Assembly (NCBI GenBank): GCA_965248765.1
Contig: CBDFKF010000003.1
Span: 653,777 to 717,776 of the forward strand
Direction of reading: 5' to 3'
DNA: 64,000 nucleotides
Source: Alphaproteobacteria bacterium
GTDB lineage: Bacteria > Pseudomonadota > Alphaproteobacteria > VGEJ01
Shown: positions 22,076 to 63,316 of the stretch, piece after piece
Layout of the letters: the number at the start of each line of letters is the position of its first letter
How positions within the stretch are numbered: position 1 is the first letter of the stretch
The notes under the pieces: generated by a model
What the model saw: only the letters and a program-made list of their open reading frames with translations
Database searches by the model: none
What the model was told of the DNA's origin: nothing
Position numbers and translations under genes: made by a program

Positions 22076-23752
22076 TCAATCGCCGCCCGTCTGCGCGGTC
22101 ACGCCATAGTGCTTGTCTGCCTGTTCGGGCGTGATGAGCTCGTTCTTGAGGTCGGCCATGACCTGCTCGCGGGGGCGCCTACGCGGATCGCCATAGCCGC
22201 CGCCACTTGCCGTCGTGATACGCACGATGTCGCCGGCGCCCAGCGCCAGCGCACTGATGCGGGCATAGGATTCCGTCGAGCCGTCAGCGCGAAGGATCTG
22301 CAAGCTGTTCAGTGAACCATCGCGGCCGCCGTCCAAGCCCCAGGGCGGATTGTTGTTGGTGCGCGCATAAAGGCCGGTAAGCCGCGCATCGTCGGCCCGC
22401 ATCCGATAGTCCAGCCGGACGCCGCGGCCGCCGCGGAACTCGCCCTCGCCGCCTTCGTCGGTACGGAAGGCGTATTGCTCGACGAACAGCCCATTGCGCA
22501 CCTCGTTGACCTCGATCGGGCAGTTGAATGTCTCGCCATCACCGGCGCAGAACTGCCCGTTCTCGCCATCGCGACCGGGCCCCGCGCCCCACCCGCCGAG
22601 CTCGGGTTCGACCGAGACCAAGAACTGGCCGGATTCGGGATGGGTCGAGGAGAAGATGGTGCCGCAGACCGAGTGCATGTGACCGGCGCCCAGTCGTTCG
22701 GGCACCACCGGGGCAAGCGCCTTCCAGATCAGATCGAGGGTGTACATCATCGGATCGAAATACATCCCGGCCGACGCCGGCCGTTCGGCATCGAACATCG
22801 AACCCTTGTCGGTCAGCACCTTGAGCGGGCGGAACGTGCCTTCGTTGGTCAGCGACAGCGGCCCTGTCAGCGCCTTGAAGATGATCTGCGCGCCGACCAC
22901 GGTGCACTGGTAAGGGCAGTTGTAAGGTCCCGACACTTGCCCCGGATTACCGCGCAGATCGACGATGAAATCGCCGTTCGCGACAGTGACCTTGACGCGC
23001 GTCTCGTCACCGTCGTCGGTCCTATCCGTGGCCTGGTATGTCCCTTCCGGGATCTCGGCAAGGGCCCGCCGCGAGACCGCCTCGCCATGATCGAGCAGGC
23101 TCGACATCGCGAACGTGACTGTTTCGATATCGTATTTATCGACCATCTCGATGATGCGACGCTCGCCGGTGCGAATAGAGGCAATGCCGGCCCACATGTC
23201 GCCGAGGGTGTAGTCGGGCGTGCGGGTGTTTGCGGTGATCATGTCCATTATCGAAGCGATGGGCTTACCGGCTTCGAACAGCTTGATCTCCGGGAACTGG
23301 ATGCCCTCCTGGAACAGCTCGTCCGCCTCGGTCGAGATGGAGCCATGGACCATGCCGCCGACATCGCCCCAGTGTGCCTTGTTTGCCGTCCACGCGATCA
23401 GCGTCCCGCCATGGAAGACCGGCATGAGCAGCACGATGTCGTTGAGGTGACTGACGCCGCCCGAGTGCGGATCATTGGTGATGAAGATGTCGCCCGGGTG
23501 AATATCGCCCGACGGGCCAAACTTCTTCAGCACCTGCTTGGCGCTGGAATCGAGCATGCCAACGAAGATGGGGATGCCGGCACCCTGGGTCGTGAGTTGG
23601 CCCTTCGCATCCATGACTCCGACTCCGAAGTCCAGCACTTCGTAGATGATAGAGCTCATGGCCGTCCGCCTCATGGCCGCGAACATCTCATCGCAGATTG
23701 AGTGCAGCGAGTTCTGAATGATCTCGATGGTGAAGGGGTCGGAGTTGCGCAT
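22076..23752 (-). CDS. hyuB: hydantoinase B / oxoprolinase B-subunit family protein (HyuB paralog 1)
   Basis: 558 aa. N-terminal DPFTIEIIQNSL..DEMF. NDPHSGGVSHLND. C-terminal TASGGGYGDP. Confidence 0.9.
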   Translation of the reverse strand: MRNSDPFTIEIIQNSLHSICDEMFAAMRRTAMSSIIYEVLDFGVGVMDAKGQLTTQGAGIPIFVGMLDSSAKQVLKKFGPSGDIHPGDIFITNDPHSGGVSHLNDIVLLMPVFHGGTLIAWTANKAHWGDVGGMVHGSISTEADELFQEGIQFPEIKLFEAGKPIASIMDMITANTRTPDYTLGDMWAGIASIRTGERRIIEMVDKYDIETVTFAMSSLLDHGEAVSRRALAEIPEGTYQATDRTDDGDETRVKVTVANGDFIVDLRGNPGQVSGPYNCPYQCTVVGAQIIFKALTGPLSLTNEGTFRPLKVLTDKGSMFDAERPASAGMYFDPMMYTLDLIWKALAPVVPERLGAGHMHSVCGTIFSSTHPESGQFLVSVEPELGGWGAGPGRDGENGQFCAGDGETFNCPIEVNEVRNGLFVEQYAFRTDEGGEGEFRGGRGVRLDYRMRADDARLTGLYARTNNNPPWGLDGGRDGSLNSLQILRADGSTESYARISALALGAGDIVRITTASGGGYGDPRRRPREQVMADLKNELITPEQADKHYGVTAQTGGD

Positions 23753-23771
23753 GGTCCTTGACCTGTCTTAG

Positions 23772-25850
23772 TCAGGCAGCGTCGGTTAGGCCGACGTGCA
23801 GATGAAGATTACCAAAATCGTCGATGGAGATCCGATCGTTGGGGAACACCACGACGGTGGCATCGGGCTCCTCGACGATAGCCGGCCCGGCGATCTCCAT
23901 CCCCGGCTCGAGCCGTGAGCGCTCATAAATTGCCGCCTCGTGGATGCCGTGGACATCGTAGTCGACCACCCGCTCGCCACGCCGGGCCTCGTCGAGCGCG
24001 CGACCGCTGCGCTCCAGCTTCGGCACTATCGGCTTGCCGATTTCGCGCAGCGCCACAAGGTGATAGGTCACGATCTCGACCGGGTTGTCGAGAGTGTAGG
24101 TGTACTCGCGCTCATAGGTCTTGTGGAAAGTCTCAGCGGTCGCGGCGATCGTTTCGGGCTTGATCTCGCCGGGCGGAAACATCACCCGCACGGTATGTTC
24201 CTGGCCCTGATAGCGCATGTCGCCGAAGCGCTCGAACCCAATCTCGGCGGCACCACCGATCTCGCTGTCAGCGAAGTCCGCCACGGCTTGCTGTTCCATG
24301 CCGGCGAACGCGGCCTCGAGCTTGGCGGCCACCGCGTCCTCGAGGGTGCTGAGCTGCGTGAGGACGTAGTCGCGACGCAGATCCGACATCAACATGCCCC
24401 ATGCCGAGAACACCGAGCAGTTCACCGGCACGATGACCTTGGGAATGTTGAGTTCGGCTGCCAGCGCCGAGGCGTGCATGCCCCCGCCGCCGCCGAACGC
24501 GACCAGGGTGAACTCGCGCGGATCGTAGCCGCGATTGAGCGAGACCAACTTGAGTGCATTGATCATGTTGTTGTTGGCGATGCGGATGATACCGCGAGCC
24601 GTCTCCTCCGCCGACATGCCCAACGGTCCGGCCAGCTCGTCGAAGGCGCTCCGGGCCGCCCCCATGTCCGCCTTGATCTCGCCACCCAGGAAGTACTCGG
24701 GATCGATGCGTCCGGTGAGCAGATTGGCGTCGGTGGTGGTGGGATCGTTGCCGCCGCGGCCATAGGCAGCAGGCCCGGGCACCGCGCCCGCACTGTGTGG
24801 ACCAACGTTCAGACGGCCGTCCTCGTCCATCCACGCGATCGAGCCACCGCCCTGGCCGATCTCAACGATGTCGACCGTCGGCACCATGATCGGATAGCCG
24901 GCATAGTCGCGGGTCTTCTCGATGAAGTACTCGGTGGTAATGCGCACCCGCCCATCCTCGATCAGCGAGCACTTCGCAGTGGTGCCGCCAATGTCGAGGG
25001 CGATGATGTTGGGCTCATCGATCAGGCGCCCGAGGGCGCCGGCGCCGAGCACGCCGCTGGCGGGCCCCGATTCGAGCATCGTGATGGCATTGTTCTTGGC
25101 GGCCTCGATGGTATCGACGCCGCCATTCGACTGCATGATCACCGCCTGGCCCTTGAAGCCGCCGCCGCTGAGCTTGCGCTCGAGGCTCTCGAGGTAGCGA
25201 ACCGCGATGGGGTGGATGTAACCCGACAGCACCGTGGTGTTGGTGCGCTCATACTCGCGCCACTCACGGGTCACCTGATGCGAGGCGACGACCGCGACCT
25301 CCGGCCACAGCTCCCGGACTCTCTCAAAAACCGCCGCCTCATGAGCGGGGTTGGCGTAGGCGTGCAGGAAGCAGATCGCGACCGCTTCGACCTGCTCGGC
25401 CTTGAAGAACTCGACGATGGCGGGGATCTCGTCGAGTTCGAGCGAGGTGACCACCTTGCCCATGTAGTCCATACGCTCGGTGACCTCGCGGCGCAGGTAG
25501 CGAGGCACGAACGGCTTCGGCTTCGCATAGCGGAAATTGAACAGGGCTGGGCGGTTGCCGCGCGCGATCTCGAGGACATCACGGAAGCCGTGGGTGGTGA
25601 TCAGCGCGGTGGTCACGCCCTTGCGCTCCGCGAGCGCGTTGATGACGACCGTCGTGCCGTGGGCCAGGAACTCGATGTCCTTGGTCGCGATCCCCGCCTT
25701 CTCGAGCGAGTTCATCACCCCTGCCTCATAGTCAGGCGGGGTGGTGTCGACCTTCGCCGTCTTGACGGCGGAAACCTCGCCGCTCACCGCATCGACCTCG
25801 TAATAGACGAGGTCGGTGAAGGTGCCGCCTACGTCGCTCGCCACACGCAT
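23772..25850 (-). CDS. hyuA: hydantoinase A / oxoprolinase A-subunit family protein (HyuA 1)
   Basis: 692 aa. N-terminal MRVASDVGGTFTDLV. Two ASKHA-type ATPase halves (DIGGTTAKCSL). Confidence 0.9.
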   Translation of the reverse strand: MRVASDVGGTFTDLVYYEVDAVSGEVSAVKTAKVDTTPPDYEAGVMNSLEKAGIATKDIEFLAHGTTVVINALAERKGVTTALITTHGFRDVLEIARGNRPALFNFRYAKPKPFVPRYLRREVTERMDYMGKVVTSLELDEIPAIVEFFKAEQVEAVAICFLHAYANPAHEAAVFERVRELWPEVAVVASHQVTREWREYERTNTTVLSGYIHPIAVRYLESLERKLSGGGFKGQAVIMQSNGGVDTIEAAKNNAITMLESGPASGVLGAGALGRLIDEPNIIALDIGGTTAKCSLIEDGRVRITTEYFIEKTRDYAGYPIMVPTVDIVEIGQGGGSIAWMDEDGRLNVGPHSAGAVPGPAAYGRGGNDPTTTDANLLTGRIDPEYFLGGEIKADMGAARSAFDELAGPLGMSAEETARGIIRIANNNMINALKLVSLNRGYDPREFTLVAFGGGGGMHASALAAELNIPKVIVPVNCSVFSAWGMLMSDLRRDYVLTQLSTLEDAVAAKLEAAFAGMEQQAVADFADSEIGGAAEIGFERFGDMRYQGQEHTVRVMFPPGEIKPETIAATAETFHKTYEREYTYTLDNPVEIVTYHLVALREIGKPIVPKLERSGRALDEARRGERVVDYDVHGIHEAAIYERSRLEPGMEIAGPAIVEEPDATVVVFPNDRISIDDFGNLHLHVGLTDAA

Positions 25851-25894
25851 TACACCCTCTCCCTCGTTCGATCGTTTTTGGCAGTGCGATCAGA

Positions 25895-27553
25895 CTACGC
25901 GGTCACGCCGTAGTACTTGGCCGCCTGTTCGGGCGTGACGAAGCCATTCTTGACATCGTCCAGCACTTTGTCGCGCGGGCGCTCACGCGGATCGCCGTAG
26001 CCACCGCCGTTGGCGGTGATAACACGGACCACGTCGCCGGGCTCGAGCTTGAGTCCACCGGCCCGGTTGTAGTTCTCGATCCGGCCGTCGACGCGGATGA
26101 CGCGGAGGCAGTTCAGCGAGCCGTGCCGGCCGCCATTCAGCCCCCAGGGCGGATTGTCCCGGGTCCGGAAGTAGACGCCGGTGAGCCGTGCATCCTTGGC
26201 CCGGATCTTGTAGTCGAGATAGACGCCCTTGCCGCCGCGGAACGTGCCCTCGCCGCCATCATGATCGTGGAAGGCGTATTGGCCGACGAACAAGCCGTTA
26301 CGCACCTCGTTGATCTCGATCGGGCAGTTGAAGGTCTCGCCGTCGGCCGCACAGAACTGTCCGTTCTCGCCGTCGCGATCAGGCCCGGCACCCCAACCGC
26401 CGGCCTCTGGCTCGACGCAGATGGTGAAGCGGCCGTTGTCGGGGTGAGTGGCCGCGAAGATGGTGCCGCAGACCGAGGTCAAATGGCCGGCGCCGAGCCG
26501 CGCGGGCACATGCGCCGCCATCGCCTTCCACACCAGATCGAGGACCTGGAGATTGGGCTCGGGGAACATCCCGCAGGGGTCGGGACGCTGCGCATCGAAC
26601 AGCGTGCCCGGCTCGGTCAAGACCGTGAGAGGCCGGAACGTACCCGCGTTGGTAACCGAGAGCGGGCCCGTGAGGGCCTTGAAAGTGGCCTGCGCGCCGA
26701 CCACGGCGACGCCGCGCGAGCAGTTGTAGGGAGCCGCCAGCGCCTTCGGATTGTCGCGGAGGTCGACGACGAAGGCATCCGCCGTCACCTCTACCTTGAC
26801 CCGAATGGTCAGATCGTCGTCGGTGAGCTCCTCGGCCTCAAAAACGCCGTGCGGAAGTGCCGCGAGGGCGCGGCGAGAGACCGCTTCACCGTGGTCGAGA
26901 AGATCGTTCATGGCATGAACAACGGTGCTGTAGCCATACTTCTCAGCCAGTTCCGCAACGCGCCATTCGCAGACACGGATCGAGGCGATGCCGGCCCACA
27001 TGTCACCGAGTACCAGGTCGGGAGTACGGCTATTGGCAACGATCATGTCGATCATCGACGGGATCGGCTCGCCGCGCCTGAACAGCTTGACCTCAGGAAA
27101 CTGGATGCCCTCCTGGAACAACTCCGTCGAATCGGTCGAGAGACTGCCAGCCACCTTGCCGCCCACATCGCTCCAATGCGCCTTGTTGGCCGCCCAGGCT
27201 AACAACCGGTTGTCGTGGAAGATCGGCATCACCACAACGACGTCGTTGAGGTGGGTGACGCCGCCGGAGTAGGGATCGTTGGTGATGAAGATGTCGCCGG
27301 GGTGGATGTCGCCAGCGTCGAACTTGCGCATGACCGCCTTGGCGCCCGAATCGAGGACGCCGATGAAGCAGGGGACGCCGGCGCCGGTCGTTAAGAGCTC
27401 GCCCTCTCCTGTCATGATCGCGACGCCGAAGTCCAGAACCTCATAGATGGTCGAGGTCATCGCCGTGCGCCGCGTGATGGCGAACATCTCATCGGTGATG
27501 GCGTGCAGCGAGTTCTGAATGATCTCGATGGTGAAGGGATCGTCGAGCTTCAT
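25895..27553 (-). CDS. hyuB: HyuB paralog 2 (start at internal Met MKLDDPFTIEI of ORF 25895..27700)
   Basis: About 70% identical by eye to the neighbouring HyuB paralogs. C-terminal TANGGGYGDPRERP. Confidence 0.9.
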   Translation of the reverse strand: MKLDDPFTIEIIQNSLHAITDEMFAITRRTAMTSTIYEVLDFGVAIMTGEGELLTTGAGVPCFIGVLDSGAKAVMRKFDAGDIHPGDIFITNDPYSGGVTHLNDVVVVMPIFHDNRLLAWAANKAHWSDVGGKVAGSLSTDSTELFQEGIQFPEVKLFRRGEPIPSMIDMIVANSRTPDLVLGDMWAGIASIRVCEWRVAELAEKYGYSTVVHAMNDLLDHGEAVSRRALAALPHGVFEAEELTDDDLTIRVKVEVTADAFVVDLRDNPKALAAPYNCSRGVAVVGAQATFKALTGPLSVTNAGTFRPLTVLTEPGTLFDAQRPDPCGMFPEPNLQVLDLVWKAMAAHVPARLGAGHLTSVCGTIFAATHPDNGRFTICVEPEAGGWGAGPDRDGENGQFCAADGETFNCPIEINEVRNGLFVGQYAFHDHDGGEGTFRGGKGVYLDYKIRAKDARLTGVYFRTRDNPPWGLNGGRHGSLNCLRVIRVDGRIENYNRAGGLKLEPGDVVRVITANGGGYGDPRERPRDKVLDDVKNGFVTPEQAAKYYGVTA

Positions 27554-27590: not shown

Positions 27591-29255
27591 TCAGGGGGTG
27601 ACGCCATAGTACTTGGTCGCCTGCTCCGGCGTAACGAAGCCATTCTTGACATCGTCGAGCACCTTGTCGCGCGGGCGCTCGCGCGGATCGCCGTAACCAC
27701 CGCCCGTCGCGGTGGTGATACGAACGATGTCGCCCGGCTCGAGGTTTAGGGCGCTGATGCGATTGTAGCTATCTTCCGAGCCGTCCCGGCGCACGATCGT
27801 GAGACTGTTGAGGGAGCCGGACCGACCCCCATTGAGGCCCCATGGCGGGTTGCCGCTGCTGCGCGCGTAGAGCCCGGTCAGCTGGGCATCGTCCGCGCGC
27901 ATCCGATAATCGAGAACGACGCCTTTTCCGCCGCGGAACCTGCCCTCACCGCCTTCGGCGGTGTGGAAAGCATAGCGGTCGACGAAGAGGCCGTTGCGCG
28001 CCTCGGCGACCTCAACAGGGCAGTTGTAGGTCTCGCCATCCGCCACACAGTATTGGCCGTTCAGCCCATCAGCCTCGGCCGTCGCGCCCCAGCCGCCGAG
28101 CTCTGGCTCGATCGTGATCACATAGCGGCCGGTATCGGGGTGAGTGGCGGCGAACGCGGTCGCGCACACCGAATGCAGGGTGCCGGCCCCGAGGCGCTCG
28201 GGCACGACCGGCGCCATCGCCTTCCAGACCAGCTCCGTCGCATACATGGCCGAGTCGAAGTAGACCCCCGCCGAGGCCGGTGGCTCGGCATGGAACATGG
28301 TACCCGTGCGAGTCAGCACTTGGAGCGGGCGAAACGATCCATCGTTGCACACCGAAAAAGGACTCGTCAGCGCCTTGAAGATCACCCGCACGCCGGCCAT
28401 CGTGCACAAATGCGGGCAGTTGAAGGCTCCCGGCAGCGGCCCTGGGTTGTCGCGCAGATCGACGACGAAGTCCTCGCCATCGACCGTGACCGCGACCCGT
28501 ATGGGGAGACCGTTGTCCATCCGGTCCTCGGCCTCGTAGACACCATTGGGCAGCTCCGCCACAGCCCGGCGCGACACCGCCTCGGCGTGGTCGAGAACAC
28601 TCTCCATTGCCAGTTCAACCGCCCCGACGCCGTACTTCTCGGCCATCTCGCGAACCCGCCGCTCGCCGCAGCGGATCGAAGCGACGCCCGCCCACATATC
28701 GCCAAGCACCTGCTCGTGCGCGCGGCTGTTGGCAGCGATCATGTCGAGCACCGACGGGAGAGGGCGGCCGCGCTCGAATAGCTTGACCTCGGGGAACAGT
28801 ATGCCCTCCTGGAACAGCTCGGCGGCGTCGGTCGCGATGCCACCAGCCACCATGCCGCCAATATCGCCCCAATGGGCCTTGTTGCCGGTCCAAGCGATCA
28901 CCCGATCGCCATGGAAGACCGGCATGATGAGCGCAACGTCGTTCAGATGGGTGACCCCGCCCGAGTGCGGATCGTTGGTCATGAAGATGTCGCCCGGGTG
29001 GATGTCGTTGCGCGGACCGAACTTGGCGATCATCGCCTTCGTCGCCGCATCGAGCGTGCCGATGAAGATCGGCACGCCAGCACCCTGCGAGGCCAGCTCT
29101 CCGGTGGCGTTGGTCGTGCCGACGCCAAAATCGAGCACCTCGTAGATGATTGAGCTCATCGCGGCCTTGCGCATGACCGCGAACATCTCGTCACAAACGG
29201 CGGCAAGCGAGCCTTGGATGATCTCGATGGTGAAGGGATCGTGGTCGCGCGGCAT
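27591..29255 (-). CDS. hyuB: HyuB paralog 3
   Basis: 554 aa. MPRDHDPFTIEIIQGSL... C-terminal TATGGGYGDPRERPRDKVLDDVKNGFVTPEQA, nearly identical to the paralog 2 C-terminus. Confidence 0.9.
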   Translation of the reverse strand: MPRDHDPFTIEIIQGSLAAVCDEMFAVMRKAAMSSIIYEVLDFGVGTTNATGELASQGAGVPIFIGTLDAATKAMIAKFGPRNDIHPGDIFMTNDPHSGGVTHLNDVALIMPVFHGDRVIAWTGNKAHWGDIGGMVAGGIATDAAELFQEGILFPEVKLFERGRPLPSVLDMIAANSRAHEQVLGDMWAGVASIRCGERRVREMAEKYGVGAVELAMESVLDHAEAVSRRAVAELPNGVYEAEDRMDNGLPIRVAVTVDGEDFVVDLRDNPGPLPGAFNCPHLCTMAGVRVIFKALTSPFSVCNDGSFRPLQVLTRTGTMFHAEPPASAGVYFDSAMYATELVWKAMAPVVPERLGAGTLHSVCATAFAATHPDTGRYVITIEPELGGWGATAEADGLNGQYCVADGETYNCPVEVAEARNGLFVDRYAFHTAEGGEGRFRGGKGVVLDYRMRADDAQLTGLYARSSGNPPWGLNGGRSGSLNSLTIVRRDGSEDSYNRISALNLEPGDIVRITTATGGGYGDPRERPRDKVLDDVKNGFVTPEQATKYYGVTP

Positions 29256-29265: not shown

Positions 29266-30285
29266 CTACTTCCAGACCTCGCGCGCGATCCTCAGGTAGT
29301 TCTCGCCGAAGATGCCGCGGATGTCGGGCTCGGTGTAGCCTCGCCGCAGCATTTCCTCGGTCAGGGCCGGCAGCTGCTCAGGCTGGAAGAACTGCGCCGG
29401 CGGGTCATCGCCGTAGTCGCGCCAATAGCGATCCTTGTTGGCGAGGAAGAACTGATTCCAACCCTCAAGGTCGTAGACCAGGTCGATGCCAAGGCCGACA
29501 TGCGCCGGGCCCGCCACTTCGACGATATGATCGAGGTGGCGCATGAAGGCCTCGACCGAGGCATCGTCCTCGCCGAGGAAGATGCCGACGCCGGTGACGC
29601 CGACGAGCCCGCCGGTGGCGGCGCACGCCTTGATCTGATCGTCGTGGATATTGCGGCCGTGGTCGGTGAGGACGCGGGCGTTGGAATGCGAGAACACGAC
29701 AGGCTGGGTGGTGATATCCAGCGCCTGCATGGTCGCGCGATAGCCGGTGTGGGAGCAGTCGAGCAGCATGCCGACCCGGTTCATCTCGACGACGAGATCG
29801 CCACCGAATTGGCTCAAGCCTCCGTCCGCCGCCTCGTGACAGCCGTCGGCGGCGAGGTTGCGGACATTGTAGGCGAGGATCATCTGGCGGACGCCGAGCT
29901 TGTAGTAGGCCTCGACCAGGCTGAGATCGCCGCCAAGCCCGTTCGAGCCCTGGAAGTTGAAGCCGACCGCGAGCTTGCCTTGCGCCTTTGCGCGGACGAT
30001 ATCATCCGCGGTCTCGACCAGGACGTAGCGATCTGGCTCGGCGAGAAAGCGCCCGCGTTGTTGGGCGAGGTGCCGGAACGTAGCCTCGATCCACGTCCAA
30101 TCGTCGGCCAGCGTGAGCGACACGAAATCGACGCCGGCCGCGGGATAACGCGGTAACACCGCCTCACGCGCTTCCTCTTTGAGATCCTCCTCCCAGTTGA
30201 CGGTTATGTCGCAGATCATGGCCTCAGCCACTAGCGCCGCCGCGCGCGCAGCAAGATCGGGTTCGTGGACAGATTGCTCGCTCAT
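29266..30285 (-). CDS. membrane (renal-type) dipeptidase, peptidase family M19
   Basis: Starts at internal Met MSEQSVHEPDL of ORF 29266..30414. M19-like segments ICDITVNWEE, DCSHTG, HLDHIVEVAGPAHVGLGIDLVYD. Confidence 0.8.
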   Translation of the reverse strand: MSEQSVHEPDLAARAAALVAEAMICDITVNWEEDLKEEAREAVLPRYPAAGVDFVSLTLADDWTWIEATFRHLAQQRGRFLAEPDRYVLVETADDIVRAKAQGKLAVGFNFQGSNGLGGDLSLVEAYYKLGVRQMILAYNVRNLAADGCHEAADGGLSQFGGDLVVEMNRVGMLLDCSHTGYRATMQALDITTQPVVFSHSNARVLTDHGRNIHDDQIKACAATGGLVGVTGVGIFLGEDDASVEAFMRHLDHIVEVAGPAHVGLGIDLVYDLEGWNQFFLANKDRYWRDYGDDPPAQFFQPEQLPALTEEMLRRGYTEPDIRGIFGENYLRIAREVWK

Positions 30286-30296
30286 GGGCTCGTCAC

Positions 30297-34148: not shown

Positions 34149-34234
34149 CGTCTGAACCTAGCGTCAAAAAAAGCAAGTGGCGGCGGCCACCGCTGGGCCG
34201 CCGCCACGTCTAAACCGATCCAACCGATAGGTTT

Positions 34235-45895: not shown

Positions 45896-45963
45896 CCTAT
45901 CTCCCGTCGTCACTGTTCCTGCCGGCTGTTTTGTTGTCATGCTGTGTCCCTACTCGAGTGCGC

Positions 45964-49922: not shown

Positions 49923-49999
<77 letters not shown>

Positions 50000-51419: not shown

Positions 51420-53203
51420 CAAGGGTGCGGCAACGTGCGGCGCCGGCGCGCGGCGGTCTCCGCTTGATCGACCTCGAGGCTGTCGGTCGCGACCTCGCCC
51501 GTGACGACGACGCCATAGACCTCGCGTGCCTGTTCGAGCGAGACGATGCGCTCCTCGATGTCGCGCTTGACCCGCGCCGGGTCGCGGGTCATCGGATCGC
51601 CGAAGCCGCCGCCGCCCTGATCGATCGCCCGGATCCACTCGCCCGGCTGCAGCGTCGTGTCAACATAGGCGGGCTGAGACTCCTCGCGGCCATCCGGGAG
51701 CACAAGGAGATTGGCGCCGAGATCGGCGTCGTGCCCGCCATGCACGCCGCGCGGCCGCTGTTCGACGATCCCATTGGTGATGTTGATCATCGTCATGGGA
51801 TCGGCGCGCGGGCCAAACACCACCTCGGTCGCCGGCCCGCCCCGAAAGCGCCCGGCACCCGCGGAACCCTCGATTACGCCGAGCGACCTGACCAGGATCG
51901 GAAAGCGCTGCTCGTCGATTTCCACGCTATCACGATAGAGAAGGCCCATGACCGGCATGAGGATCATCGAGACCATCCCGTCGGTCGTCGCAGTCGCCGG
52001 GCCGCCGCCGCCCATTAGATAGACCTGGCTGATATACGGCGCGCCGCCGCGCCGGGAATCGCGGCCCGAGACCACGCCGGCGCCGGCCGAGTTAACCCAA
52101 TTTCCCTGCGCGATGCCGAGGCCCTCGCCCAGCTTCGCGAAGGCGAGATGAACGAGGTTGATCAGGATATCGATCATCGGCGCCGTGGCGCACGAGCAGC
52201 TATGGGGAAATCGTGGGATGCCGGCGACACTGTTCTCTCGCAGTAGGACCCGGACGTGCCGGAAGGTCCCGGAGTTGTAGGGCACGTCCTCGAGGCAATT
52301 GAACACGCCCTGGGCCGCCGCCATGGTGGCCGTCGCCTCGGTCAGGTTCATGCCGGCCTCGACACAGTCGATATTGTCGCGCAGATCGATGGTGATCTCG
52401 CCGGCCTCGGCGTCGACCTCCAGGGTCACCGTAATCGGGATGCCGTCGGGCAGGAAAGGCTCGACCGGATCGTGTCCTCCGGCGACGGTGACGCGACCGC
52501 TCACCAGCTTCTTGATCGCCGTGACCGTGCGCCGCTCGGTGTAATCGAACCAGGCGTCGACGAAGCGCTGTACCGTCTCCATCCCGTGCGCGGCGATGAA
52601 CGCCTTGAGCCGTTGCTCGCCGATGCGCGCCGCGCTGATCGCTGCCAGGTGATCGCCGTACCATTGCTCGGGTACGCGGATGCGGCGCCGGCACATGCGG
52701 ATGATGTCGTCGACCTCGCGATAGTCGCGCTGCACCTGGACGCATGGGAAGATCAGGGCACCCTCCTCATAGACGTCCTTGGCCGGCGCAAAGTAGGTAG
52801 TCGGCACGCTGTTGCCGATGTCCGCCTGATGGCAGGTCGCGATCACGGTGAAGACGTGGACGCCGTCGTGGAACATTGGCACGAGGACGGCGTGGTCGGC
52901 CGGGTGGGTACCGCCGTCATAGGGATCGTTGTGCAGGAAGGCGTCGCCCTCTTTCGGGTTCGGCTGGAGGCGCGTCAGCGCGCGGGCCTGCAGTGTCGCC
53001 CCGTAGATATGGATTGGCACGCCCTCTGCGGCCGCGACCAGCTCGCCCTCGCGCGTCACGATAGAGCACGACATATCGCGCGCCATGCCGATCACCGAGG
53101 AGCGCGCGGTGCGGACGATCGTGTCCGTCATCTCGCGGACGATCGCTTCCATCCGGTTGGCCATGATCGCGAGCTGGATCGGATCGTAGTCGATTCGGCT
53201 CAT
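51419..53203 (-). CDS. hyuB: HyuB paralog 6 (start at internal Met MSRIDYDPIQ)
   Basis: 594 aa. QGGGGFGDP. Same subfamily as the pseudogene at 4814..6606. Confidence 0.9.
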   Translation of the reverse strand: MSRIDYDPIQLAIMANRMEAIVREMTDTIVRTARSSVIGMARDMSCSIVTREGELVAAAEGVPIHIYGATLQARALTRLQPNPKEGDAFLHNDPYDGGTHPADHAVLVPMFHDGVHVFTVIATCHQADIGNSVPTTYFAPAKDVYEEGALIFPCVQVQRDYREVDDIIRMCRRRIRVPEQWYGDHLAAISAARIGEQRLKAFIAAHGMETVQRFVDAWFDYTERRTVTAIKKLVSGRVTVAGGHDPVEPFLPDGIPITVTLEVDAEAGEITIDLRDNIDCVEAGMNLTEATATMAAAQGVFNCLEDVPYNSGTFRHVRVLLRENSVAGIPRFPHSCSCATAPMIDILINLVHLAFAKLGEGLGIAQGNWVNSAGAGVVSGRDSRRGGAPYISQVYLMGGGGPATATTDGMVSMILMPVMGLLYRDSVEIDEQRFPILVRSLGVIEGSAGAGRFRGGPATEVVFGPRADPMTMINITNGIVEQRPRGVHGGHDADLGANLLVLPDGREESQPAYVDTTLQPGEWIRAIDQGGGGFGDPMTRDPARVKRDIEERIVSLEQAREVYGVVVTGEVATDSLEVDQAETAARRRRTLPHP

Positions 53204-55275
53204 GCGCCAGTCTCGATGAGATAATTGCCGAGCACGGTCCGCGCCGCGCACGCGCCGGGATAGACCACGATGGTCGTGGTGGGTTCCTCAATGATCGCGG
53301 GGCCGGCCACGGTCATCCCGGAGCCAAGGTCGGCGCCGAGATAGATTGGCGTCTCGGCCTCGCCCTGCGGTTCGAAATAGGCCCGCGCGAGACGGTCCGA
53401 ACGCGGAAAGCTCGCGCCACACGAGGTCTCCGGGGCCATGACCGGCTTGTCGCGCAGCGCCGTCAGACGCACCCGCCAATTAATGCATTCAACCACGCCG
53501 CCGACCTCGCGCACCGCGTAGAGCCGCTCGTGGGTCCGGTGGAAGGCCTCGACCAGCGCGGCGAGATCATCCGCCGTTTCGATGCTCGTGCCGATCAAGG
53601 GCACCTCGATCTCCCATTGCTGATTGAGGTAGCGCGCCTCGACGAAGTAGTCGGTGCGCTGGTCGGTCACGCCGCGCGCCCGAAGCCCCGCCCCAAAGGC
53701 CTCACCCTGGGCGCGAAGCTGCCGCAGCACCGTGGCCACGGCTTCATAGTCGAAATCGGCCGAGTGGGCGTACTGGCTGGCGGAATACTCGGTGACAATG
53801 TCGGAATATTGCGCGCCGCACGCGCTCAGACCGCCTGCGGTGCGCGGCAGCAACACGCGGGCGCAGCCGAGCGCGCGAGCGATCGGCACGATCGTTAGGC
53901 CGGCCGCGCCGCCGCCGGCGACCAAAACGCTCTCGCGTGGATCCACGCCGTCGTTGACCGTGATCGCCTCTATCGCCTCGATCATCAGCTCGCCCGCGAG
54001 CAGCAGAATGCCGGACGCCGTCTCCTCGACGGTCTTGCCCATGGCGTCCGCGAGCGAAACGATGGCCCGGCCCGCGGCCGCAACGTCGAGCGGCATGCGC
54101 CCGCCGAGGAAATGTGCCGCATCAATGTAGCCGAGCACCAGAGCGGCGTCGGTCACCGTCGGCGCCGCGCCGCCCCGGCCGTAGGCCGCAGGCCCCGGCA
54201 CCGCCCCCGCCGATTGCGGTCCGACGCGCAACATGCCGCCCGAATCGAGCCAGGCGATCGAGCCGCCGCCCGAGCCGACGCTCCTGACGTCCACGGTTGC
54301 CATGCCGAGATTGTGCCCGACCCACTCCCCGAGCAGCCAGCTCTCGCGCGTGTACTTGACGAGCCCGGCGCGCACCAGGCTCACGTCGAAGGTGGTGCCG
54401 CCGGTATCGACGACGATGATGTCGCCGCCGAGCCCCTCGGCTTCGGCATAGGCCTTGCCAGCGACGGGCGCCATCGCCGGCCCTGACTTCACGGTATAGA
54501 CCGGCCGGGCGATCGCGTCGGCCGCGTGCAGCAGGCCGCCGGACGACACGCTCACCATCATCTCGCCCGAGAAACCGCCGGCGGCTAGATCGTCATGCAG
54601 CGTGCGCAGGTGCGCCTGCATCAGCGGTTTCAGCGAAGCATCGATCGTGGTTGAGGAGGCGCGCGGATACTCCCTGACCACGGGGTTGAGCGCGGATGAG
54701 AGGGTGTAGGGGATGTCCGGCAGAAGCGCTTCGATCAGCGCGCCGACGCGCCGCTCGTGCGCGTCGTTGACGATCGACCAGAGCAGACAGACCGCGATCG
54801 TTTCGATCCCCATCGCCGGCAAGTCGCGCAAGACGGCGCGCACGGCTTGCTCGTCGAGCGCGCGTTCGATCCCGCCCTCGGCGTTGATGCGTTCTGGGAC
54901 CTCGAACGTAAGCCGCCGCGGCACGTAGGGTGGCGGATTCTCCACATCGACCCGAAACGGATGATGCTTGCCGCCCTGCCTATAGAGCAGGATGTTGGGA
55001 AAGCCTTCCGTCGTGAGAAAGGCTGTCTTGGCGACTTTGCCCTCGACGATCGCATTGGCCGCCCGCGTCGTCGCGTAGATCAGAATGCCGGCCTCGCGCA
55101 GGAGGTCGTCGGGATCGCGCCGCAGTTCCGCTGCGGCATTGGCAAGCGCCGCGTACAACCCCTCGAAAGAGCGCTCGGGCGTGGTCAGCGCCTTGCCGAG
55201 GATGAGTCGGTCGTCGGCATCAGCCACGACAACGTCCGTGAAGGTCCCGCCGACATCGACAGCTATGCGAAGCAT
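53200..55275 (-). CDS. hyuA: HyuA 3
   Basis: 691 aa. MLRIAVDVGGTFTDVV... VDTGGTTFDVSL. Stop overlaps the hyuB start (ATGA). Confidence 0.9.
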   Translation of the reverse strand: MLRIAVDVGGTFTDVVVADADDRLILGKALTTPERSFEGLYAALANAAAELRRDPDDLLREAGILIYATTRAANAIVEGKVAKTAFLTTEGFPNILLYRQGGKHHPFRVDVENPPPYVPRRLTFEVPERINAEGGIERALDEQAVRAVLRDLPAMGIETIAVCLLWSIVNDAHERRVGALIEALLPDIPYTLSSALNPVVREYPRASSTTIDASLKPLMQAHLRTLHDDLAAGGFSGEMMVSVSSGGLLHAADAIARPVYTVKSGPAMAPVAGKAYAEAEGLGGDIIVVDTGGTTFDVSLVRAGLVKYTRESWLLGEWVGHNLGMATVDVRSVGSGGGSIAWLDSGGMLRVGPQSAGAVPGPAAYGRGGAAPTVTDAALVLGYIDAAHFLGGRMPLDVAAAGRAIVSLADAMGKTVEETASGILLLAGELMIEAIEAITVNDGVDPRESVLVAGGGAAGLTIVPIARALGCARVLLPRTAGGLSACGAQYSDIVTEYSASQYAHSADFDYEAVATVLRQLRAQGEAFGAGLRARGVTDQRTDYFVEARYLNQQWEIEVPLIGTSIETADDLAALVEAFHRTHERLYAVREVGGVVECINWRVRLTALRDKPVMAPETSCGASFPRSDRLARAYFEPQGEAETPIYLGADLGSGMTVAGPAIIEEPTTTIVVYPGACAARTVLGNYLIETGA

Positions 55276-57275: not shown

Positions 57276-57548
57276 TCAACCGGTGACGATGTCGTTAAGG
57301 AACGGATCACCGGGCAAAGCAGTCTCGGTATCGAGCAACGCACCGCAGCCCGGACAGAAAAAGCGTCGCAGCAAGACCTGCTCACCCGCCGCGTAGCTCT
57401 CGCCGGCCGCCCCCCGCATCGGGCCCTCCTCCACGTGCGCGCCGGGCTTCCACGGCTCGCCCGCGCCGCCGAGCCTATGCTCGCAACCCGCGCACCGAAC
57501 CTCCGGGCCCGATGCGGCATCGCGGACTATGAGTGCAGTGTCGGCCAC
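57276..57548 (-). CDS. small Cys-rich zinc-ribbon protein resembling the acetone-carboxylase gamma subunit (C-terminal half)
   Basis: 90 aa. Two Cys pairs: VRCAGCEH and RRFFCPGCGALLDTETALPGDP. The second resembles AcxC REYFCPECGTLHDVEAP as recalled from memory. Lies 13 bp downstream of the preceding HyuB-like gene. Confidence 0.55.
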   Translation of the reverse strand: MADTALIVRDAASGPEVRCAGCEHRLGGAGEPWKPGAHVEEGPMRGAAGESYAAGEQVLLRRFFCPGCGALLDTETALPGDPFLNDIVTG

Positions 57549-59403: not shown

Positions 59404-61512
59404 TCACGAGAATTCGATCACCATGTTGCGATGTGCATCCATCTGACCGTGCTGGTGATCCTGCACGACGATGGTGGTGATCGGGGTGTGAATAACGGCA
59501 GGGCCGGCGACAACGTTGCCTGGTTCCAGCCGCTCGAAATCGTAGATCTCGGCAGGCGCAAGTCCGCCGCGTGCTTCGACGAAAATCTCGCGCCGACCAA
59601 TGCTCGCGCGCTTGGGATCGGCGCCCCCGAGCGGCAGCGGCTCGAGCTCGGGACGGTCCATCAATCCGCGCGCGGTCAACCGGAACATGGTCATTTCCAT
59701 GCCAGCGCCGCGATAAGCCGAGCCCTTGCCGAACTTGCGCTGATAGAGCGCCTCGAAGTCGTCGATGAGCTTTTCGAGCCCCTTTGAATCGAGCGGCGTC
59801 GCGGCCCGCACGGGCGTCGTCACCTCATGCACTTGTTTGCCGTACCGGAGATCGACCGACCAATCGAGCCGTATGCGGTCAGTCGGAAACCCCTCCTCTT
59901 TGAGCTGCTCAAGGGCAACCGTCCGCATCGGGGCGTAAATCTCATTCAACTCGTCGGCCGGAGAAGGCACAGGCAGTGTCTTGGTGACGGAATACTCGTG
60001 AACGATATCCGCTGAAACCAGGCCGAAGGCGCTATACACCGCGGCCGAGTACGGAACGATCACCCGTTTCACGTTTAGTTCGGCACCGAAGGTCCCGCAC
60101 AGCAAGGGGCAGGTGCCGCCGAAGGCGTGCAGCACAAAATCGCGCGGATCAAGACCGCGCTCGACCGTGATCTCGTGAATCAGGTCGGCGATCTGAGCGG
60201 CTGCAACGCGGTAGATGCCGAACGCGGCCTCGTCCACCTCCATGCCAAGCGGCCCGGCGATGCGCTCGGCAAACGCGGCCGCCGCCGCCGCGCGGTCGAG
60301 GGTGATCGTGCCGCCGAGAAAGGTGGCTGGGTCCATGTACCCCACCAGCAACAATACATCGGTCAGCGTCGGCTCGACACCGCCGCGCCCATAGCAAACC
60401 GGTCCAGGACTGGCGCTGGCACTCTGCGGTCCGACCCGGGGTATGTTGGTGTGGGGGTCCAGAGCAACGATGCTGCCGCCGCCGGCGCCGATCGAAACCA
60501 CCTCGATCTTGGGAGCGATGTAGTGATACCGCGCAACCATCGGCTCGCGCGCGTACTCCATCTCGCCGCCCTGGATGACCCCGACCTTGAAGGTTGTGCC
60601 GCCCATGTCGGCGGCGATGATATCGCGATCGCCCATTTGGTCGCCGAGGAACTGACTGCCGATAACCCCGGCGGCCGGGCCACTCTCGATCATGCCGACC
60701 GCCCGGTCCGCGGCTTCCACCGCCGGCAGCAGACCGCCGTAGCCCTGCATCACGAGAAGCGGGCCTTTGTACCCTTCGGCCGCCAACAGCTCGCCGAGAT
60801 CGGTCAGATAATCGCGCGAGATGCGCCCGGCGTAGGCGTTGATGACCGTCGTCGAGGTCCGCTCGTACTCGCCGGGGACTGGCGCGATATCGCTCGACAG
60901 CGTGACATAGGCATCGGGCGCTAGACGGCCAACGATCTCGCGCACGGCGTGTTCGTGGGCCGTATTGTAGAAGGACCACAAAAAGCACACGGCGATGGCA
61001 TCGACACCCTTCGACTCGACCAGATGGCTGACCGCGGCCTCGACAGCCGGCACGTCAAGCTCCTTGAGCACCGCCCCCTTGTAGTCGACCCGCTCCGGGA
61101 CACCGCGAATACACCCGGTCTCGACCAGCGGTGGCGGGCGCTCGGTGGCGATCGGATGTTTGACACGATCCTCGGATAGGCCTGCCCAGCGGCCGTAGGC
61201 GCCCCGCGTGATCAAGAGGGTATCCTCGAACCCTTCGGTAGTAATCAGGCCGGTCTTGGCGCCTTCGCGCGTCAGGATCGCGTTGTCGACGACCGTCGAG
61301 CCGTGCGCGAAGAGAGAGGTGCGGGCGAGCACTTCGGCCAGCGTCGTTCCCATCGAGTCGGCCGCCGAGACGATCGAGTCGATGACGCCCTGGGCGAAAT
61401 TAGGCGGTGTGGAGAGCGCCTTACCGACGTGAAGCGGCTGGCCTGCGGCGAAGACGATAGTGTCGGTGCAGGTGCCGCCGACGTCGGTCGAGACGATAAA
61501 CGGTGATGCCAC
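59404..61512 (-). CDS. HyuA-like protein 4 (GTG start 1 nt after the upstream stop; the ORF-track start at 61638 overlaps the upstream gene)
   Basis: About 703 aa. VASPFIVSTDVGGTCTDTIV... ADMGGTTFKVGVI. Its stop is followed 1 nt later by the next start. Confidence 0.85.
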   Translation of the reverse strand: MASPFIVSTDVGGTCTDTIVFAAGQPLHVGKALSTPPNFAQGVIDSIVSAADSMGTTLAEVLARTSLFAHGSTVVDNAILTREGAKTGLITTEGFEDTLLITRGAYGRWAGLSEDRVKHPIATERPPPLVETGCIRGVPERVDYKGAVLKELDVPAVEAAVSHLVESKGVDAIAVCFLWSFYNTAHEHAVREIVGRLAPDAYVTLSSDIAPVPGEYERTSTTVINAYAGRISRDYLTDLGELLAAEGYKGPLLVMQGYGGLLPAVEAADRAVGMIESGPAAGVIGSQFLGDQMGDRDIIAADMGGTTFKVGVIQGGEMEYAREPMVARYHYIAPKIEVVSIGAGGGSIVALDPHTNIPRVGPQSASASPGPVCYGRGGVEPTLTDVLLLVGYMDPATFLGGTITLDRAAAAAAFAERIAGPLGMEVDEAAFGIYRVAAAQIADLIHEITVERGLDPRDFVLHAFGGTCPLLCGTFGAELNVKRVIVPYSAAVYSAFGLVSADIVHEYSVTKTLPVPSPADELNEIYAPMRTVALEQLKEEGFPTDRIRLDWSVDLRYGKQVHEVTTPVRAATPLDSKGLEKLIDDFEALYQRKFGKGSAYRGAGMEMTMFRLTARGLMDRPELEPLPLGGADPKRASIGRREIFVEARGGLAPAEIYDFERLEPGNVVAGPAVIHTPITTIVVQDHQHGQMDAHRNMVIEFS

Positions 61513-61513
61513 C

Positions 61514-63316
61514 TCAGGCGCGCGCGTGACGCGCTTTCTCGGTTGCCGCCTCGTCGATGGCCATGGCCTCGGTAATGATGACGCCGTAGTCCCGCTCGGC
61601 CGTGGCGACCGAGATGTAGCCGTCGAGAACGTTCTCAAGAACCAACTTCGGTTCGCGCTCTATTGGGTTTCCGTAGCCGCCGCCGCACGGTCCGACCTGG
61701 ATGATACGATCGCCTGCAGCGGCGGGTAGATGGGGGATCTTCGATGGGAGCTCGACCACGTCACCGTTGGCGCGTTTCAGGATGAGCGCGGCGTGGTAGC
61801 CATCCGCGCCGCCATCGAAGCCCCAGGGCGGATGTTCGTGGCCCTCGCCCTCGACCGAGAAACCGCCGTCCTCCAACCACTCTGCCTCGCGGATCGAACC
61901 AACCCCGCCGCGCCATTTACCGGGGGCGCAAGCATCGTAGCGAAGCTCGTATTGATGAACCCTCAGAGGCAGATGGGATTCGAGATCCTCGATGGGGTTG
62001 TTGCGGGTGTTGGTGAACAGAATATCGACGGCATCCATCCCGTCCTTGCCGTAACGCCCGCCGTAGCTCCCCTCGTGGATCTCCATGTGCACCCAGTGAG
62101 TCTCGCCGCGCAGACCGCTGAACGCGATGACCTCGAGATTGCCGACGCCCGCGCTGACCTGCGTGGGTACCGCTTCGGCCAATGCCTTCATCATGGTGCT
62201 GGCCATCTGAATGCCGGGGCAACAGCGGGCGATCGTCGGCGCGGGAAAGATCGGGTTCACCAAAGTGCCCCTGGGCGCGACGATGGTGATCGGTCTGGTA
62301 AGCCCCGCGTTCTGGGGAATCTTCCCGTGGATCGCTGAGTCGAGCAGGATCGAGCGCAGCGTCATCCACACGCCGCAGTCGACCGTGCCCTCGAGCGGCA
62401 TGTTGATAGGCCGATCGTCGACCTGCGGTGCGGTGCCGGTGAAATCAACGGTCAGCTCGCTGCCATCCACGGTGACGGTGACCTCAATGGGCAGATCGCG
62501 CCGCGCCGGATCGTCGCTGTCGAGATAGCCGTCGATCTTAGTTTTGGCGTTGTAGGAGCCATCGGGCAGCTTCTCGATCGCAGCCCGCATCATCCGCTCC
62601 GAGTAGTCCATCAGCTCCTCGGACGCGGCTTCCACCAGCTCCAGGCCATACTGCTCGATCAATGCAACGTAGCGCTCGGCACCGATGTGGCAGGCGGCGA
62701 TTTGCGCCTCCATGTCTCCCACCACCAGATCGGAAGCGCGTATGTTGTCACGCACCATGTGCCAAACGGCGATGTTCTTGACACCGCGCTCATAGACTTT
62801 GAGCGCGCGGAACTGCAGCCCCTCGGCGTACGCATCCATTGCATCGACTATGCCCGCGCTTCCAGGCGTGAGGGCACCGATGTCGAGATGGTGCGCCGCG
62901 GTGAACGAGAAGCCGGCAAGCTCGTCGCGATAGAAGACCGGCACCACGAAACCGACATCAGGCCCATGCGATGCGCCGGCATACGCGTCGTTGTGCATGA
63001 TCACATCGCCCGGTTCGATCGCCTCGCCGCGCTCATCCAGGATCCGCCGCAGTCCTCTGATATAGCCAGGCGCCGGACCGGACTGGAGCGGCGTGCTTTG
63101 CGGCGTTTCTGCGATCTGATGTCCGGCCGCATTGATCAGGGCGGCGCCGAAGTCCTCGGATTCGCGGATGATGCTCGAATGCGACATGCGCATCAGCTTG
63201 AAGCCCATCTCGATCGCGATGTTTTCGAGCGCGCCCTGGATGACGTTGGCGGTGACCGGATCGATTCGATTGGACCCCGGTTGGGCAGCCTTCTCCGATT
63301 CAGCAACCGACGTCAT
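61514..63316 (-). CDS. hyuB: HyuB paralog 8
   Basis: 600 aa. DPVTANVIQGALENI... HNDAYAGASHGPD... CGGGYGNPIEREP. Confidence 0.9.
   Translation of the reverse strand: MTSVAESEKAAQPGSNRIDPVTANVIQGALENIAIEMGFKLMRMSHSSIIRESEDFGAALINAAGHQIAETPQSTPLQSGPAPGYIRGLRRILDERGEAIEPGDVIMHNDAYAGASHGPDVGFVVPVFYRDELAGFSFTAAHHLDIGALTPGSAGIVDAMDAYAEGLQFRALKVYERGVKNIAVWHMVRDNIRASDLVVGDMEAQIAACHIGAERYVALIEQYGLELVEAASEELMDYSERMMRAAIEKLPDGSYNAKTKIDGYLDSDDPARRDLPIEVTVTVDGSELTVDFTGTAPQVDDRPINMPLEGTVDCGVWMTLRSILLDSAIHGKIPQNAGLTRPITIVAPRGTLVNPIFPAPTIARCCPGIQMASTMMKALAEAVPTQVSAGVGNLEVIAFSGLRGETHWVHMEIHEGSYGGRYGKDGMDAVDILFTNTRNNPIEDLESHLPLRVHQYELRYDACAPGKWRGGVGSIREAEWLEDGGFSVEGEGHEHPPWGFDGGADGYHAALILKRANGDVVELPSKIPHLPAAAGDRIIQVGPCGGGYGNPIEREPKLVLENVLDGYISVATAERDYGVIITEAMAIDEAATEKARHARA

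Follow-up and report, generated by a model that had tools for sequence, protein, structure and literature searches.

What is to be made of an operon that encodes several B subunits (HyuB) of an ATP-dependent hydrolase and a single A subunit (HyuA)? The question is raised by a stretch of 64,000 nucleotides (nt) from an alphaproteobacterium (GenBank assembly GCA_965248765.1, contig CBDFKF010000003.1, positions 653,777 to 717,776), the whole of which we call the window. The ATP-dependent lactamases, hydantoinases and ketone carboxylases attract interest as a means of opening very stable rings, caprolactam, valerolactam, pyrrolidone and hydantoins among them. To our knowledge, every characterised hydrolase of this family pairs A and B 1:1 and is encoded by two genes, and our literature searches returned no description of operons with several HyuB genes per HyuA. 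The region is a predicted catabolic island of an uncultured, soil-type bacterium, rich in insertion sequences (IS), that comprises four separate operons of the ATP-dependent hydantoinase/ketone-carboxylase family. The surplus of HyuB in three of them is a real, selected and uncommon arrangement within a well-known enzyme family.

Four operons and a surplus of HyuB

HyuA and HyuB genes were sought with Pfam and with hidden Markov model (HMM) profiles built from the window's own copies, across all window open reading frames (ORFs) of at least 30 amino acids (aa). The scan returned eight full-length HyuB genes (PF02538, with the profile covered from about position 1 to 519) and four full-length HyuA genes (PF05378, PF01968 and PF19278), together with one short HyuA-like gene and one frameshifted HyuB. 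This is the inventory given in a preliminary description of the same DNA, and it was confirmed, positions included; so too was the division into four separately organised modules. M1 comprises B3-B2-A1-B1 on the minus strand. M2, B4-A2-B5, lies on the plus strand and is transcribed away from M1, with 185 nt between the two. M3, A3-B6, is a canonical 1:1 pair, and M4 reads B8-A4-B7-gamma (Table 1). The N-terminal sequence motifs previously taken to mark subfamilies are present as quoted – DPFTIEIIQ in B1–B3 and DHVTLEIIWGKL in B4 and B5. Under the definition of the hydantoinase/ketone-carboxylase superfamily (Weidenweber et al. 2017), A1–A4 are HyuA-type (ASKHA ATP-binding) proteins, and B1–B8, each with a full-length PF02538 domain and the metal tetrad, are of the B type.

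The excess of B subunits, first described as 2:1 or 3:1, is genuine but does not reflect a uniform design: M3 is 1:1, and M4 is an A-B-gamma triad with one foreign B. The preliminary description overlooked the fourth gene of M4, a 90-aa ORF with an Acetone_carb_G domain. Only M3 follows the rule of the Hyd branch – two genes in the order hydA-hydB, one B per A – and M1, M2 and M4 do not. Neighbouring genes are separated by 11–45 nt in M1 and by 1–5 nt at B4-A2-B5 and B8-A4-B7.

The HyuB copies are intact, diverged and under selection

Are the surplus genes likely to encode working subunits? In CapAB, the caprolactamase of Pseudomonas jessenii, the metal ligands are Asp41, His99, Asp102 and His124 of CapB, and alanine mutants bore out the part that this site plays in catalysis (PMC8453981). 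Aligned to CapB, all eight B copies keep this tetrad (D41/H99/D102/H124): the inactivating lesions that the preliminary description allowed for were found in none of them. Even the N-terminal half of the decayed HyuB keeps all four ligands. The ATP phosphate-binding motifs DxGGTxTD and DxGGT are invariant in A1–A4. A degenerate, structural B copy, comparable to the alpha' subunit of acetophenone carboxylase (Apc), was considered and rejected, the tetrad being intact in all eight.

Nor are the copies near-identical, undiverged duplicates, the other outcome foreseen at the outset: identities between B proteins run from 25 to 67%. B1, B2 and B3 are 64–67% identical to one another and B4 is 67% identical to B5; between these two groups identity is 37–42%, and B6, B7 and B8 share 25–32% with the rest. 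Among the A proteins, A1 and A2 are 49% identical and the other pairs 33–36%. Residues equivalent to the pocket of CapB differ between paralogs and are kept in orthologs. At 15 pocket-lining positions mapped by alignment, B1, B2 and B3 share 8–9 residues among themselves and 12–14 with their own ortholog in a related metagenomic contig (14 of 15 for B2). Rough estimates of the ratio of nonsynonymous to synonymous divergence (dN/dS) are 0.14–0.18 for these three genes (0.14 for B1 and B2, 0.18 for B3), as against 0.13 for A1; the value for B5 is 0.17.

Core and accessory HyuB genes

The layout of M1 – ATP-binding cassette (ABC) importer, M19 dipeptidase, B-B-A-B – is kept in two further lineages at 73–88% identity. 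In the related contig (L001/L002, 73–83% identity) the order is M19-ABC-M19-B-B-A-B, and a neighbour-joining tree pairs B1, B2 and B3 each with the gene at the same position in L001; the triplication therefore predates the divergence of these lineages. A third lineage (L142/L143) reads ABC-M19-B'-B3-A1-B1, followed by a pair of the B4-A2 type: it is without a B2 ortholog and has an upstream B', 53–58% identical, instead. Gene by gene, B3 is 73% identical to its counterpart in L001 and 76% in L142, B2 is 83% identical to its L001 ortholog, A1 is 81% identical in L001 and 87% in L142, and B1 and the B at its position in L142 are 88% identical. A more distant locus, L144, holds a plain A-B pair, closest to A1 (70%) and B1 (71%).

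For M2, orthologs of B4 (72–80%) stand in B-A order in L140, L141 and L142; a downstream B5 is missing after the A gene in L140 (B-A) and L141 (B-X-B-A). A2 resembles the A of L141 (76% identity) and, less closely, the second A of L013 (68%). For M4, a B8-like gene is absent upstream of the A-B-gamma units of L083–L085. Because the L144 pair is closest to A1-B1, B4 orthologs occur without B5, and A4-B7-gamma occurs without B8, each multi-B module appears to be a canonical core to which accessory B genes have been joined. The predicted cores are A1-B1, B4-A2 and A4-B7-gamma, and the predicted accessories B2, B3, B5 and B8. The accessory complement varies between lineages.

The surplus goes further in the related lineage. 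L088 (1–21677) and L001 belong to the same ENA contig, ctg257091l, where seven HyuB genes and one HyuA lie in ~33 kb. Stand-alone B genes there sit beside transposases and beside an RraA-like gene; the B next to the RraA-like gene is the ortholog of B5. A HyuB surplus thus seems to be a trait of this lineage.

How common is such a layout? Same-strand clusters were counted in 79 species-representative genomes around HyuA relatives: AB accounts for 48 and BA for 12, with four ABB, one BABBA and one BBBA. Clusters with excess B occur in six of the 79 (Paracoccaceae, Stappiaceae, Ammoniphilus, an alphaproteobacterial metagenome-assembled genome, Gaiellaceae and Streptomyces), and appear to have recurred independently in several phyla. 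The layout is uncommon but recurrent. Around relatives of A2 in particular, B-excess clusters number 0 of 47 metagenome loci. We rejected B-A-B as the norm for the M2 family on this count, the nearest B4 orthologs being B-A or B-X-B-A.

One side observation concerns L144, where the canonical A-B pair is followed (10789–12645) by genes with CT_C_D and CT_A_B domains, which are characteristic of the PxpB/PxpC 5-oxoprolinase and allophanate hydrolase subunits. The locus thus holds two unrelated lactam-opening systems next to each other.

Comparison with characterised enzymes

CapAB (PDB 6YRA) is a two-subunit ATP-dependent lactam hydrolase whose subunits belong to the same Pfam families as A1–A4 and B1–B8, and for B1, B6, B7 and B8, the four searched against the PDB, CapB ranks first or second among the solved relatives. 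Whereas CapAB is a strict 1:1 (alpha-beta)2 enzyme of two genes, M1, M2 and M4 carry extra B. The pocket residues of the window B copies differ from CapB at most positions, and scores fall short of the NCBIfam equivalog cutoff of 1000 bits for CapA and CapB (229–279 bits for the B copies scanned, all but B4; 502–522 bits for A1 and A4).

Hyd clusters are composed of two genes in conserved hydAB order, acetone carboxylase (Acx) is encoded by acxABC and Apc by apcABCD(E); Hyd enzymes have a beta subunit of ~570 aa, an alpha subunit of ~690 aa and no gamma (PMC5214803). In the window, B1–B6 and B8 are 548–600 aa and A1–A3 681–692 aa; B7 (612 aa) and A4 (702 aa) come with a gamma gene. M3 shares the two-gene layout and the subunit sizes of the N-methylhydantoinase/5-oxoprolinase type (HyuAB of Pseudomonas putida 77; fused in 7HK5). 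The top solved relative of B8 in the PDB search is this fused N-methylhydantoinase, with a match to the B half at 6e-138. M1 (B-B-A-B), M2 (B-A-B) and M4 (B-A-B-gamma) break the two-gene rule.

Among characterised enzymes, Apc alone combines paralogous large subunits in a single complex: these are alpha and alpha', both of the A type and 30% identical (PMC5214803; PMC8453981), and alpha' deviates in its interface segments and does not touch Apc beta (PMC5214803). The likeness to Apc lies in the small four-cysteine gamma subunit of M4. The difference is that Apc has duplicated its A type, whereas in the window it is the B type that is multiplied: the HMM scan of window ORFs found no second HyuA in any module. 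The window also has no alpha' or epsilon gene, and its gene order is unlike apcABCDE. Scores against the NCBIfam ApcA, ApcC and ApcD models are 33–400 bits against cutoffs of 1250–1500; on the Apc alpha model A4 reaches 400 bits and A1 295.

M4 has likenesses to Acx, an (alpha beta gamma)2 enzyme (PDB 5M45, 5SVB): A4-B7-gamma lie in the order acxA-acxB-acxC, gamma is a PF08882 protein with four cysteines, and of the window B copies B7 comes nearest to the Acx large subunit. The sizes do not agree. Acx alpha exceeds Hyd alpha by more than 100 aa, and Acx gamma is long (PMC5214803); B7, at 612 aa, compares with ~720 aa (PMC5214803) and 776 aa in the solved chains, and A4 has 702 aa. The window gamma is shorter than those of both Apc (15 kDa) and Acx. 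Finally, the Glu that is specific to Acx at the first metal position is Asp in the window B copies.

A proposed sharing of one HyuA by several HyuB

A critical issue is how several B subunits could be used with one A. Solved members of the family are (alpha-beta)2 assemblies in which two B subunits form a central dimer and each B docks one A (PMC5214803; PMC8453981). CapAB has such a CapB-CapB interface, and a tunnel of ~40 Å runs from the ATP site of A to the B metal site (PMC8453981). Because the surplus B genes are coupled to a single A gene, and because the B dimer is central in the solved complexes, the simplest reading has a single A working with several B subunits. We give roughly an even chance to the proposition that the accessory B subunits are functional and share the one A of their operon. 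The extra HyuB genes (B2 and B3, B5, B8) would have been added to canonical cores and kept – intact, predicted to bind metal, under purifying selection. In the solved enzymes A delivers activated substrate to the metal site of B through the tunnel, and the single A of each operon would serve several B subunits in this way. Alternative A2B2 isoenzymes would result, perhaps also ones with mixed B-B' cores, and their different hydrolytic pockets could widen the range of cyclic amides that can be opened. In M1, the Dpp-type importer may bring in peptide-like cyclic amides and the M19 dipeptidase may finish the dipeptide-like products of ring opening.

Several observations weigh against this reading. 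According to published mechanisms, substrate is activated in the A site, so one A would have to accept the substrates of all its B partners. Stand-alone B genes with no A nearby, in L088 and L001, possibly mean that B can function free of A. In M4, B8 occupies its position only in near-identical strains, and the A that belongs to its own subfamily is no more than a distant relative of A4: the canonical A-B pairs whose B is 63% identical to B8 (L041, L080) have A proteins that are absent from the best five matches of A4. The dN/dS values are rough, dS being ~1 and near saturation, and the pocket mapping relies on an alignment to CapB at 25–30% identity. Lastly, the substrate assignments are drawn from gene neighbourhood, and the M1 binding protein has GsiB as its top NCBIfam match at 141 bits, against a cutoff of 594; all the equivalog cutoffs consulted (CapA/B, Apc, GsiB, DppA, MfnA, thiohydantoin desulfurase) are missed widely.

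A bolder form of the sharing hypothesis, which we advance tentatively, treats HyuB subunits as exchangeable catalytic cartridges. One HyuA might activate substrates for several HyuB, or supply them with a compound such as carboxyphosphate, possibly within an A2BB' complex, and the range of the system might grow by the addition of B genes alone. This would also account for the stand-alone HyuB of related genomes. For the hydantoinase/oxoprolinase/ketone-carboxylase family, our literature searches returned no such cartridge architecture. Should the sharing prove real, a swappable B module would largely set the substrate range, which would offer a handle both for enzyme engineering and for the annotation of stand-alone HyuB. 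It also poses a question of architecture: is the B core homodimeric or heterodimeric?

An alternative, also put forward in the preliminary description, is that each operon encodes one defined, obligate heteromer – A2-B-B' or larger – in which the B subunits have non-interchangeable roles, a B-side mirror of Apc alpha/alpha'. The genes are translationally coupled, the three M1 B genes keep their order in L001, the solved complexes are built around a B-B dimer, and Apc is a case within the family of paralogous large subunits brought together in a single complex. However, the accessory complement varies between lineages: that of M1 differs in L142, where B' replaces B2, while L140 and L141 are without B5 and A-B-gamma units occur elsewhere without B8. 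A fixed assembly is disfavoured on these grounds. Moreover every B has a complete metal site, unlike Apc alpha' with its deviating interface and lack of contact with Apc beta. We regard an obligate heteromer as unlikely.

Might the extra copies instead be neutral or decaying – redundant by-products of IS-mediated rearrangement on their way to loss? The setting is suggestive: an IS-rich island with a frameshifted HyuB, a split Old-Yellow-Enzyme-like gene and a fragment of a short-chain dehydrogenase (SDR), stand-alone B genes beside transposases in L088, a B8 without deep conservation in its position, and copies of A3 and B6 that look broken in two near-identical strains. Yet B1, B2, B3 and B5 are intact across lineages at a dS of ~1 and a dN/dS of 0.14–0.18, pockets are conserved paralog by paralog, and the tetrad is present in all eight; the breaks in the two strains, L086 and L087, may be errors of long-read assemblies at 6x–8x coverage, to judge from the contig names. 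Neutral retention is distinctly unlikely.

It is also conceivable that surplus HyuB act alone as metal-dependent hydrolases, free of ATP activation, in which case the gene ratio would be silent on stoichiometry. B genes without a neighbouring A, such as those in L088 and L001 (the B5 ortholog beside the RraA-like gene included) and the single-B clusters in five GTDB and four metagenome loci, are what would be expected; several of the single-B cases, however, lie at contig ends. Every surplus B in the window is translationally coupled to an A, and no characterised member of the family works without the ATP-binding subunit (PMC5214803; PMC8453981). We think A-independent action improbable.

That collapsed or chimeric metagenome contigs mimic a local expansion is highly improbable: although the window apparently derives from a metagenome-assembled genome, with exact matches only on NCBI/ENA contigs, the paralogs are 25–67% identical, and the clustering is no assembly artefact because the same gene orders and module arrangements occur in independent assemblies from different samples (L086/L087, L001/L002, L142/L143).

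The A4-B7-gamma triad

The genes of the M4 core form a unit of their own. A4 is 75% identical to the A of L083, and B7 is 72% identical to the B of an A-B-gamma-isochorismatase unit (L083–L085), in which an isochorismatase gene follows gamma. The unit is highly conserved: among the matches listed for the B7 search, 120 of 120 cluster representatives are at least 69% identical. B7 matches Apc beta (2e-53) and the alpha subunit of acetone carboxylase (7e-35) in the PDB much more strongly than do B1, B6 and B8, the other three searched. A PF08882 gene was called in L083–L087, as part of the same triad. The window gamma is 54% identical to the copy in L083, with a dN/dS of 0.38. In the other multi-B loci no gamma was found, either by phmmer with the window gamma or by a scan for CxxC...CxxC downstream of every HyuB in the fetched loci; in the loci examined it travels with the B7 family only. 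The gamma protein is small wherever its length was recorded (89–90 aa; L083 10833–11102, L086 11849–12121).

A4-B7-gamma is thus a widespread three-subunit unit that is found elsewhere without B8. Because it has a gamma, which the published classification denies to Hyd-type enzymes, the triad appears to represent an uncharacterised branch that combines traits of the hydrolases with traits of the ketone carboxylases. It would be of use in its own right, combining Hyd-like sizes, an acx-like gene order and a gamma subunit.

Genes and features of the window

Table 1. Coordinates of the principal features, in window positions; the ORF starts of B2, B4, B6 and A4 are corrected
Feature	Coordinates	Strand	Evidence
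Transposase	2301-3812	-	DDE_Tnp_1
Decayed HyuB (B0), no adjacent HyuA, between transposase genes	~4722..6693	-	HMM positions 9-343, 340-490, 483-587 in three frames
Transposase	7595-8434	-	DDE_Tnp_1
IS21-type istA/istB pair	11663-13923	+	
Old-Yellow-Enzyme / 2,4-dienoyl-CoA-reductase-like gene, three overlapping ORFs	14720-16756	+	Oxidored_FMN, Pyr_redox_2
B1, core HyuB of M1, ancestral hydAB position 19 nt downstream of A1	22076..23752	-	PF02538 6e-161
A1, sole ATP-binding HyuA of M1	23772..25850	-	three HyuA Pfam domains
B2, accessory HyuB of M1	25895..27541	-	PF02538 3e-149
B3, accessory HyuB of M1	27591..29255	-	PF02538 6e-155
M19-family (renal-type) dipeptidase of M1, 11 nt upstream of B3	29266..30288	-	Pfam Peptidase_M19 1e-82
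ABC importer ATPases of M1, two genes	30297-31322 and 31285-32274	-	Pfam ABC_tran, oligo_HPY
ABC importer permeases of M1, two genes	32278-33294 and 33123-34148	-	Pfam BPD_transp_1, OppC_N
Family-5 solute-binding protein of M1, Dpp/Opp/Gsi-type ABC importer, first operon gene	34235..35833	-	Pfam SBP_bac_5 2e-64
B4, core HyuB of M2, stop 5 nt before A2 start	36018..37769	+	PF02538 2e-172
A2, sole HyuA of M2	37775..39820	+	three HyuA Pfam domains
B5, accessory HyuB of M2, 4 nt past A2 stop	39825..41582	+	PF02538 5e-158
MetE-like gene (cobalamin-independent methionine-synthase fold), after B5	41655..42827	+	Pfam Meth_synt_2 1e-8
Short HyuA-like protein (As)	47252..48808	+	Pfam Hydant_A_N 1e-39, Hydantoinase_A positions 1-177 of 291
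DUF917 / S-Me-THD-like protein, partner of As	48751..49893	+	Pfam S-Me-THD_N, S-Me-THD_C, ~3e-62 to 3e-64
Pyridoxal-phosphate (PLP)-dependent group II decarboxylase, translationally coupled to B6 (TGATG overlap)	50136..51419	-	Pfam Pyridoxal_deC 9e-27
B6, HyuB of M3	51419..53203	-	PF02538 3e-120
A3, HyuA of M3, stop overlaps B6 start (ATGA)	53200..55275	-	three HyuA Pfam domains
Gamma-like small subunit, 90 aa, CxxC...CxxC, 15 nt after B7	57276..57548	-	Pfam Acetone_carb_G (PF08882) 36.9 bits vs cutoff 21
B7, HyuB of A-B-gamma triad, 612 aa	57564..59402	-	PF02538 5e-125
A4, HyuA of A-B-gamma triad, 702 aa, GTG start	59404..61512	-	three HyuA Pfam domains
B8, accessory HyuB of M4, different subfamily, stop 2 nt before A4 start	61514..63316	-	PF02538 3e-145

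The M1 operon opens with importer genes. Its binding protein is 86% identical to the L001 ortholog (dN/dS 0.13), the NCBIfam Dpp/Opp/Nik/Gsi matches of the permeases and ATPases are all below their equivalog cutoffs, and the M19 dipeptidase gene holds the same operon position in L001 and L142. From this gene neighbourhood, the substrates of M1 are probably small peptide-like cyclic amides; a cyclic-dipeptide route or a glutathione/5-oxoproline route would be a guess from the same neighbours. No paper tying the hydantoinase/oxoprolinase family to diketopiperazine hydrolysis emerged from our literature searches. B2 begins at the ATG of MKLDDPF, the longer ORF to 27700 being an artefact. Promoter and terminator scans gave counts no higher than shuffled sequence and are used here for two points only: the intergenic gaps from the M19 gene to B1 contain no terminator-like site, and a strong 12-bp GC-rich hairpin with a T-run (34177–34207, minus strand) immediately follows the binding-protein gene, ahead of those for the permeases. 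The hairpin resembles an intra-operon attenuator or terminator and could result in an excess of binding protein. Just downstream of B1, a 79-aa fragment (21717–21956, minus strand) matches only the N-terminus of the SDR family and is probably a truncated remnant.

In M2, the 583-aa form of B4 is identical to P0252. NCBIfam methionine synthase models match the MetE-like gene far below cutoff, and the 72-nt gap that separates it from B5 holds a perfect 8-bp hairpin (41610–41629, plus strand; GGGTGAGC CTAT GCTCACCC).

The nearest relative of B6 inside the window is the decayed HyuB (42%). The coupling of M3 to a decarboxylase gene suggests, from context, the opening of a ring to an amino acid which is then decarboxylated; the decarboxylase scores 223 bits against the NCBIfam model for MfnA-type tyrosine decarboxylase (cutoff 299). 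The apparent truncations or frameshifts of A3 and B6 noted above fall at 13705–16771 in L086 and 14070–17976 in L087.

The short HyuA was at first counted with the expansion. The gene is there, consisting of the N-terminal domain and half of the ATPase domain without the C-terminal domain, but its partner is the DUF917 gene, with which it forms a separate unit, and it is not paired with a HyuB. The pair – a short HyuA followed by a PF06032/PF20906 gene – recurs in at least ten unrelated loci (L006, L077, L091–L094, L116, L122, L133, L136); As is therefore not a spare partner for HyuB. The DUF917 gene scores 88–100 bits against NCBIfam thiohydantoin desulfurase models with cutoffs of 440–450. 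In the metagenome loci L091–L094, L136, L133, L116 and L122 we observed a recurring super-operon, ABC transporter-As-DUF917-DUF917-HyuA-HyuB, which would tie the thiohydantoin-desulfurase-like DUF917 family in function to the ATP-dependent hydantoinases. In the window, As-DUF917 and M3 are convergent, and between the DUF917 gene and the M3 operon lies a tRNA-Arg(CCG) gene (49923–49999, minus strand), the only RNA gene in the window, which might mark an edge of the island or a site of integration.

The left third of the window is IS-rich and decaying, three transposase units surrounding the decayed HyuB. The latter carries two frameshifts, since complete coverage of the profile is spread over three reading frames. 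The Old-Yellow-Enzyme-like gene is probably a frameshifted pseudogene. Elsewhere, a homolog of tungsten-type aldehyde:ferredoxin oxidoreductase (AFOR_N and AFOR_C; 42912–44849, minus strand) lies near a periplasmic Cu/Zn superoxide dismutase (45389–45940, minus strand). The combination is odd, the former enzyme type being sensitive to oxygen and the latter an enzyme of oxidative stress.

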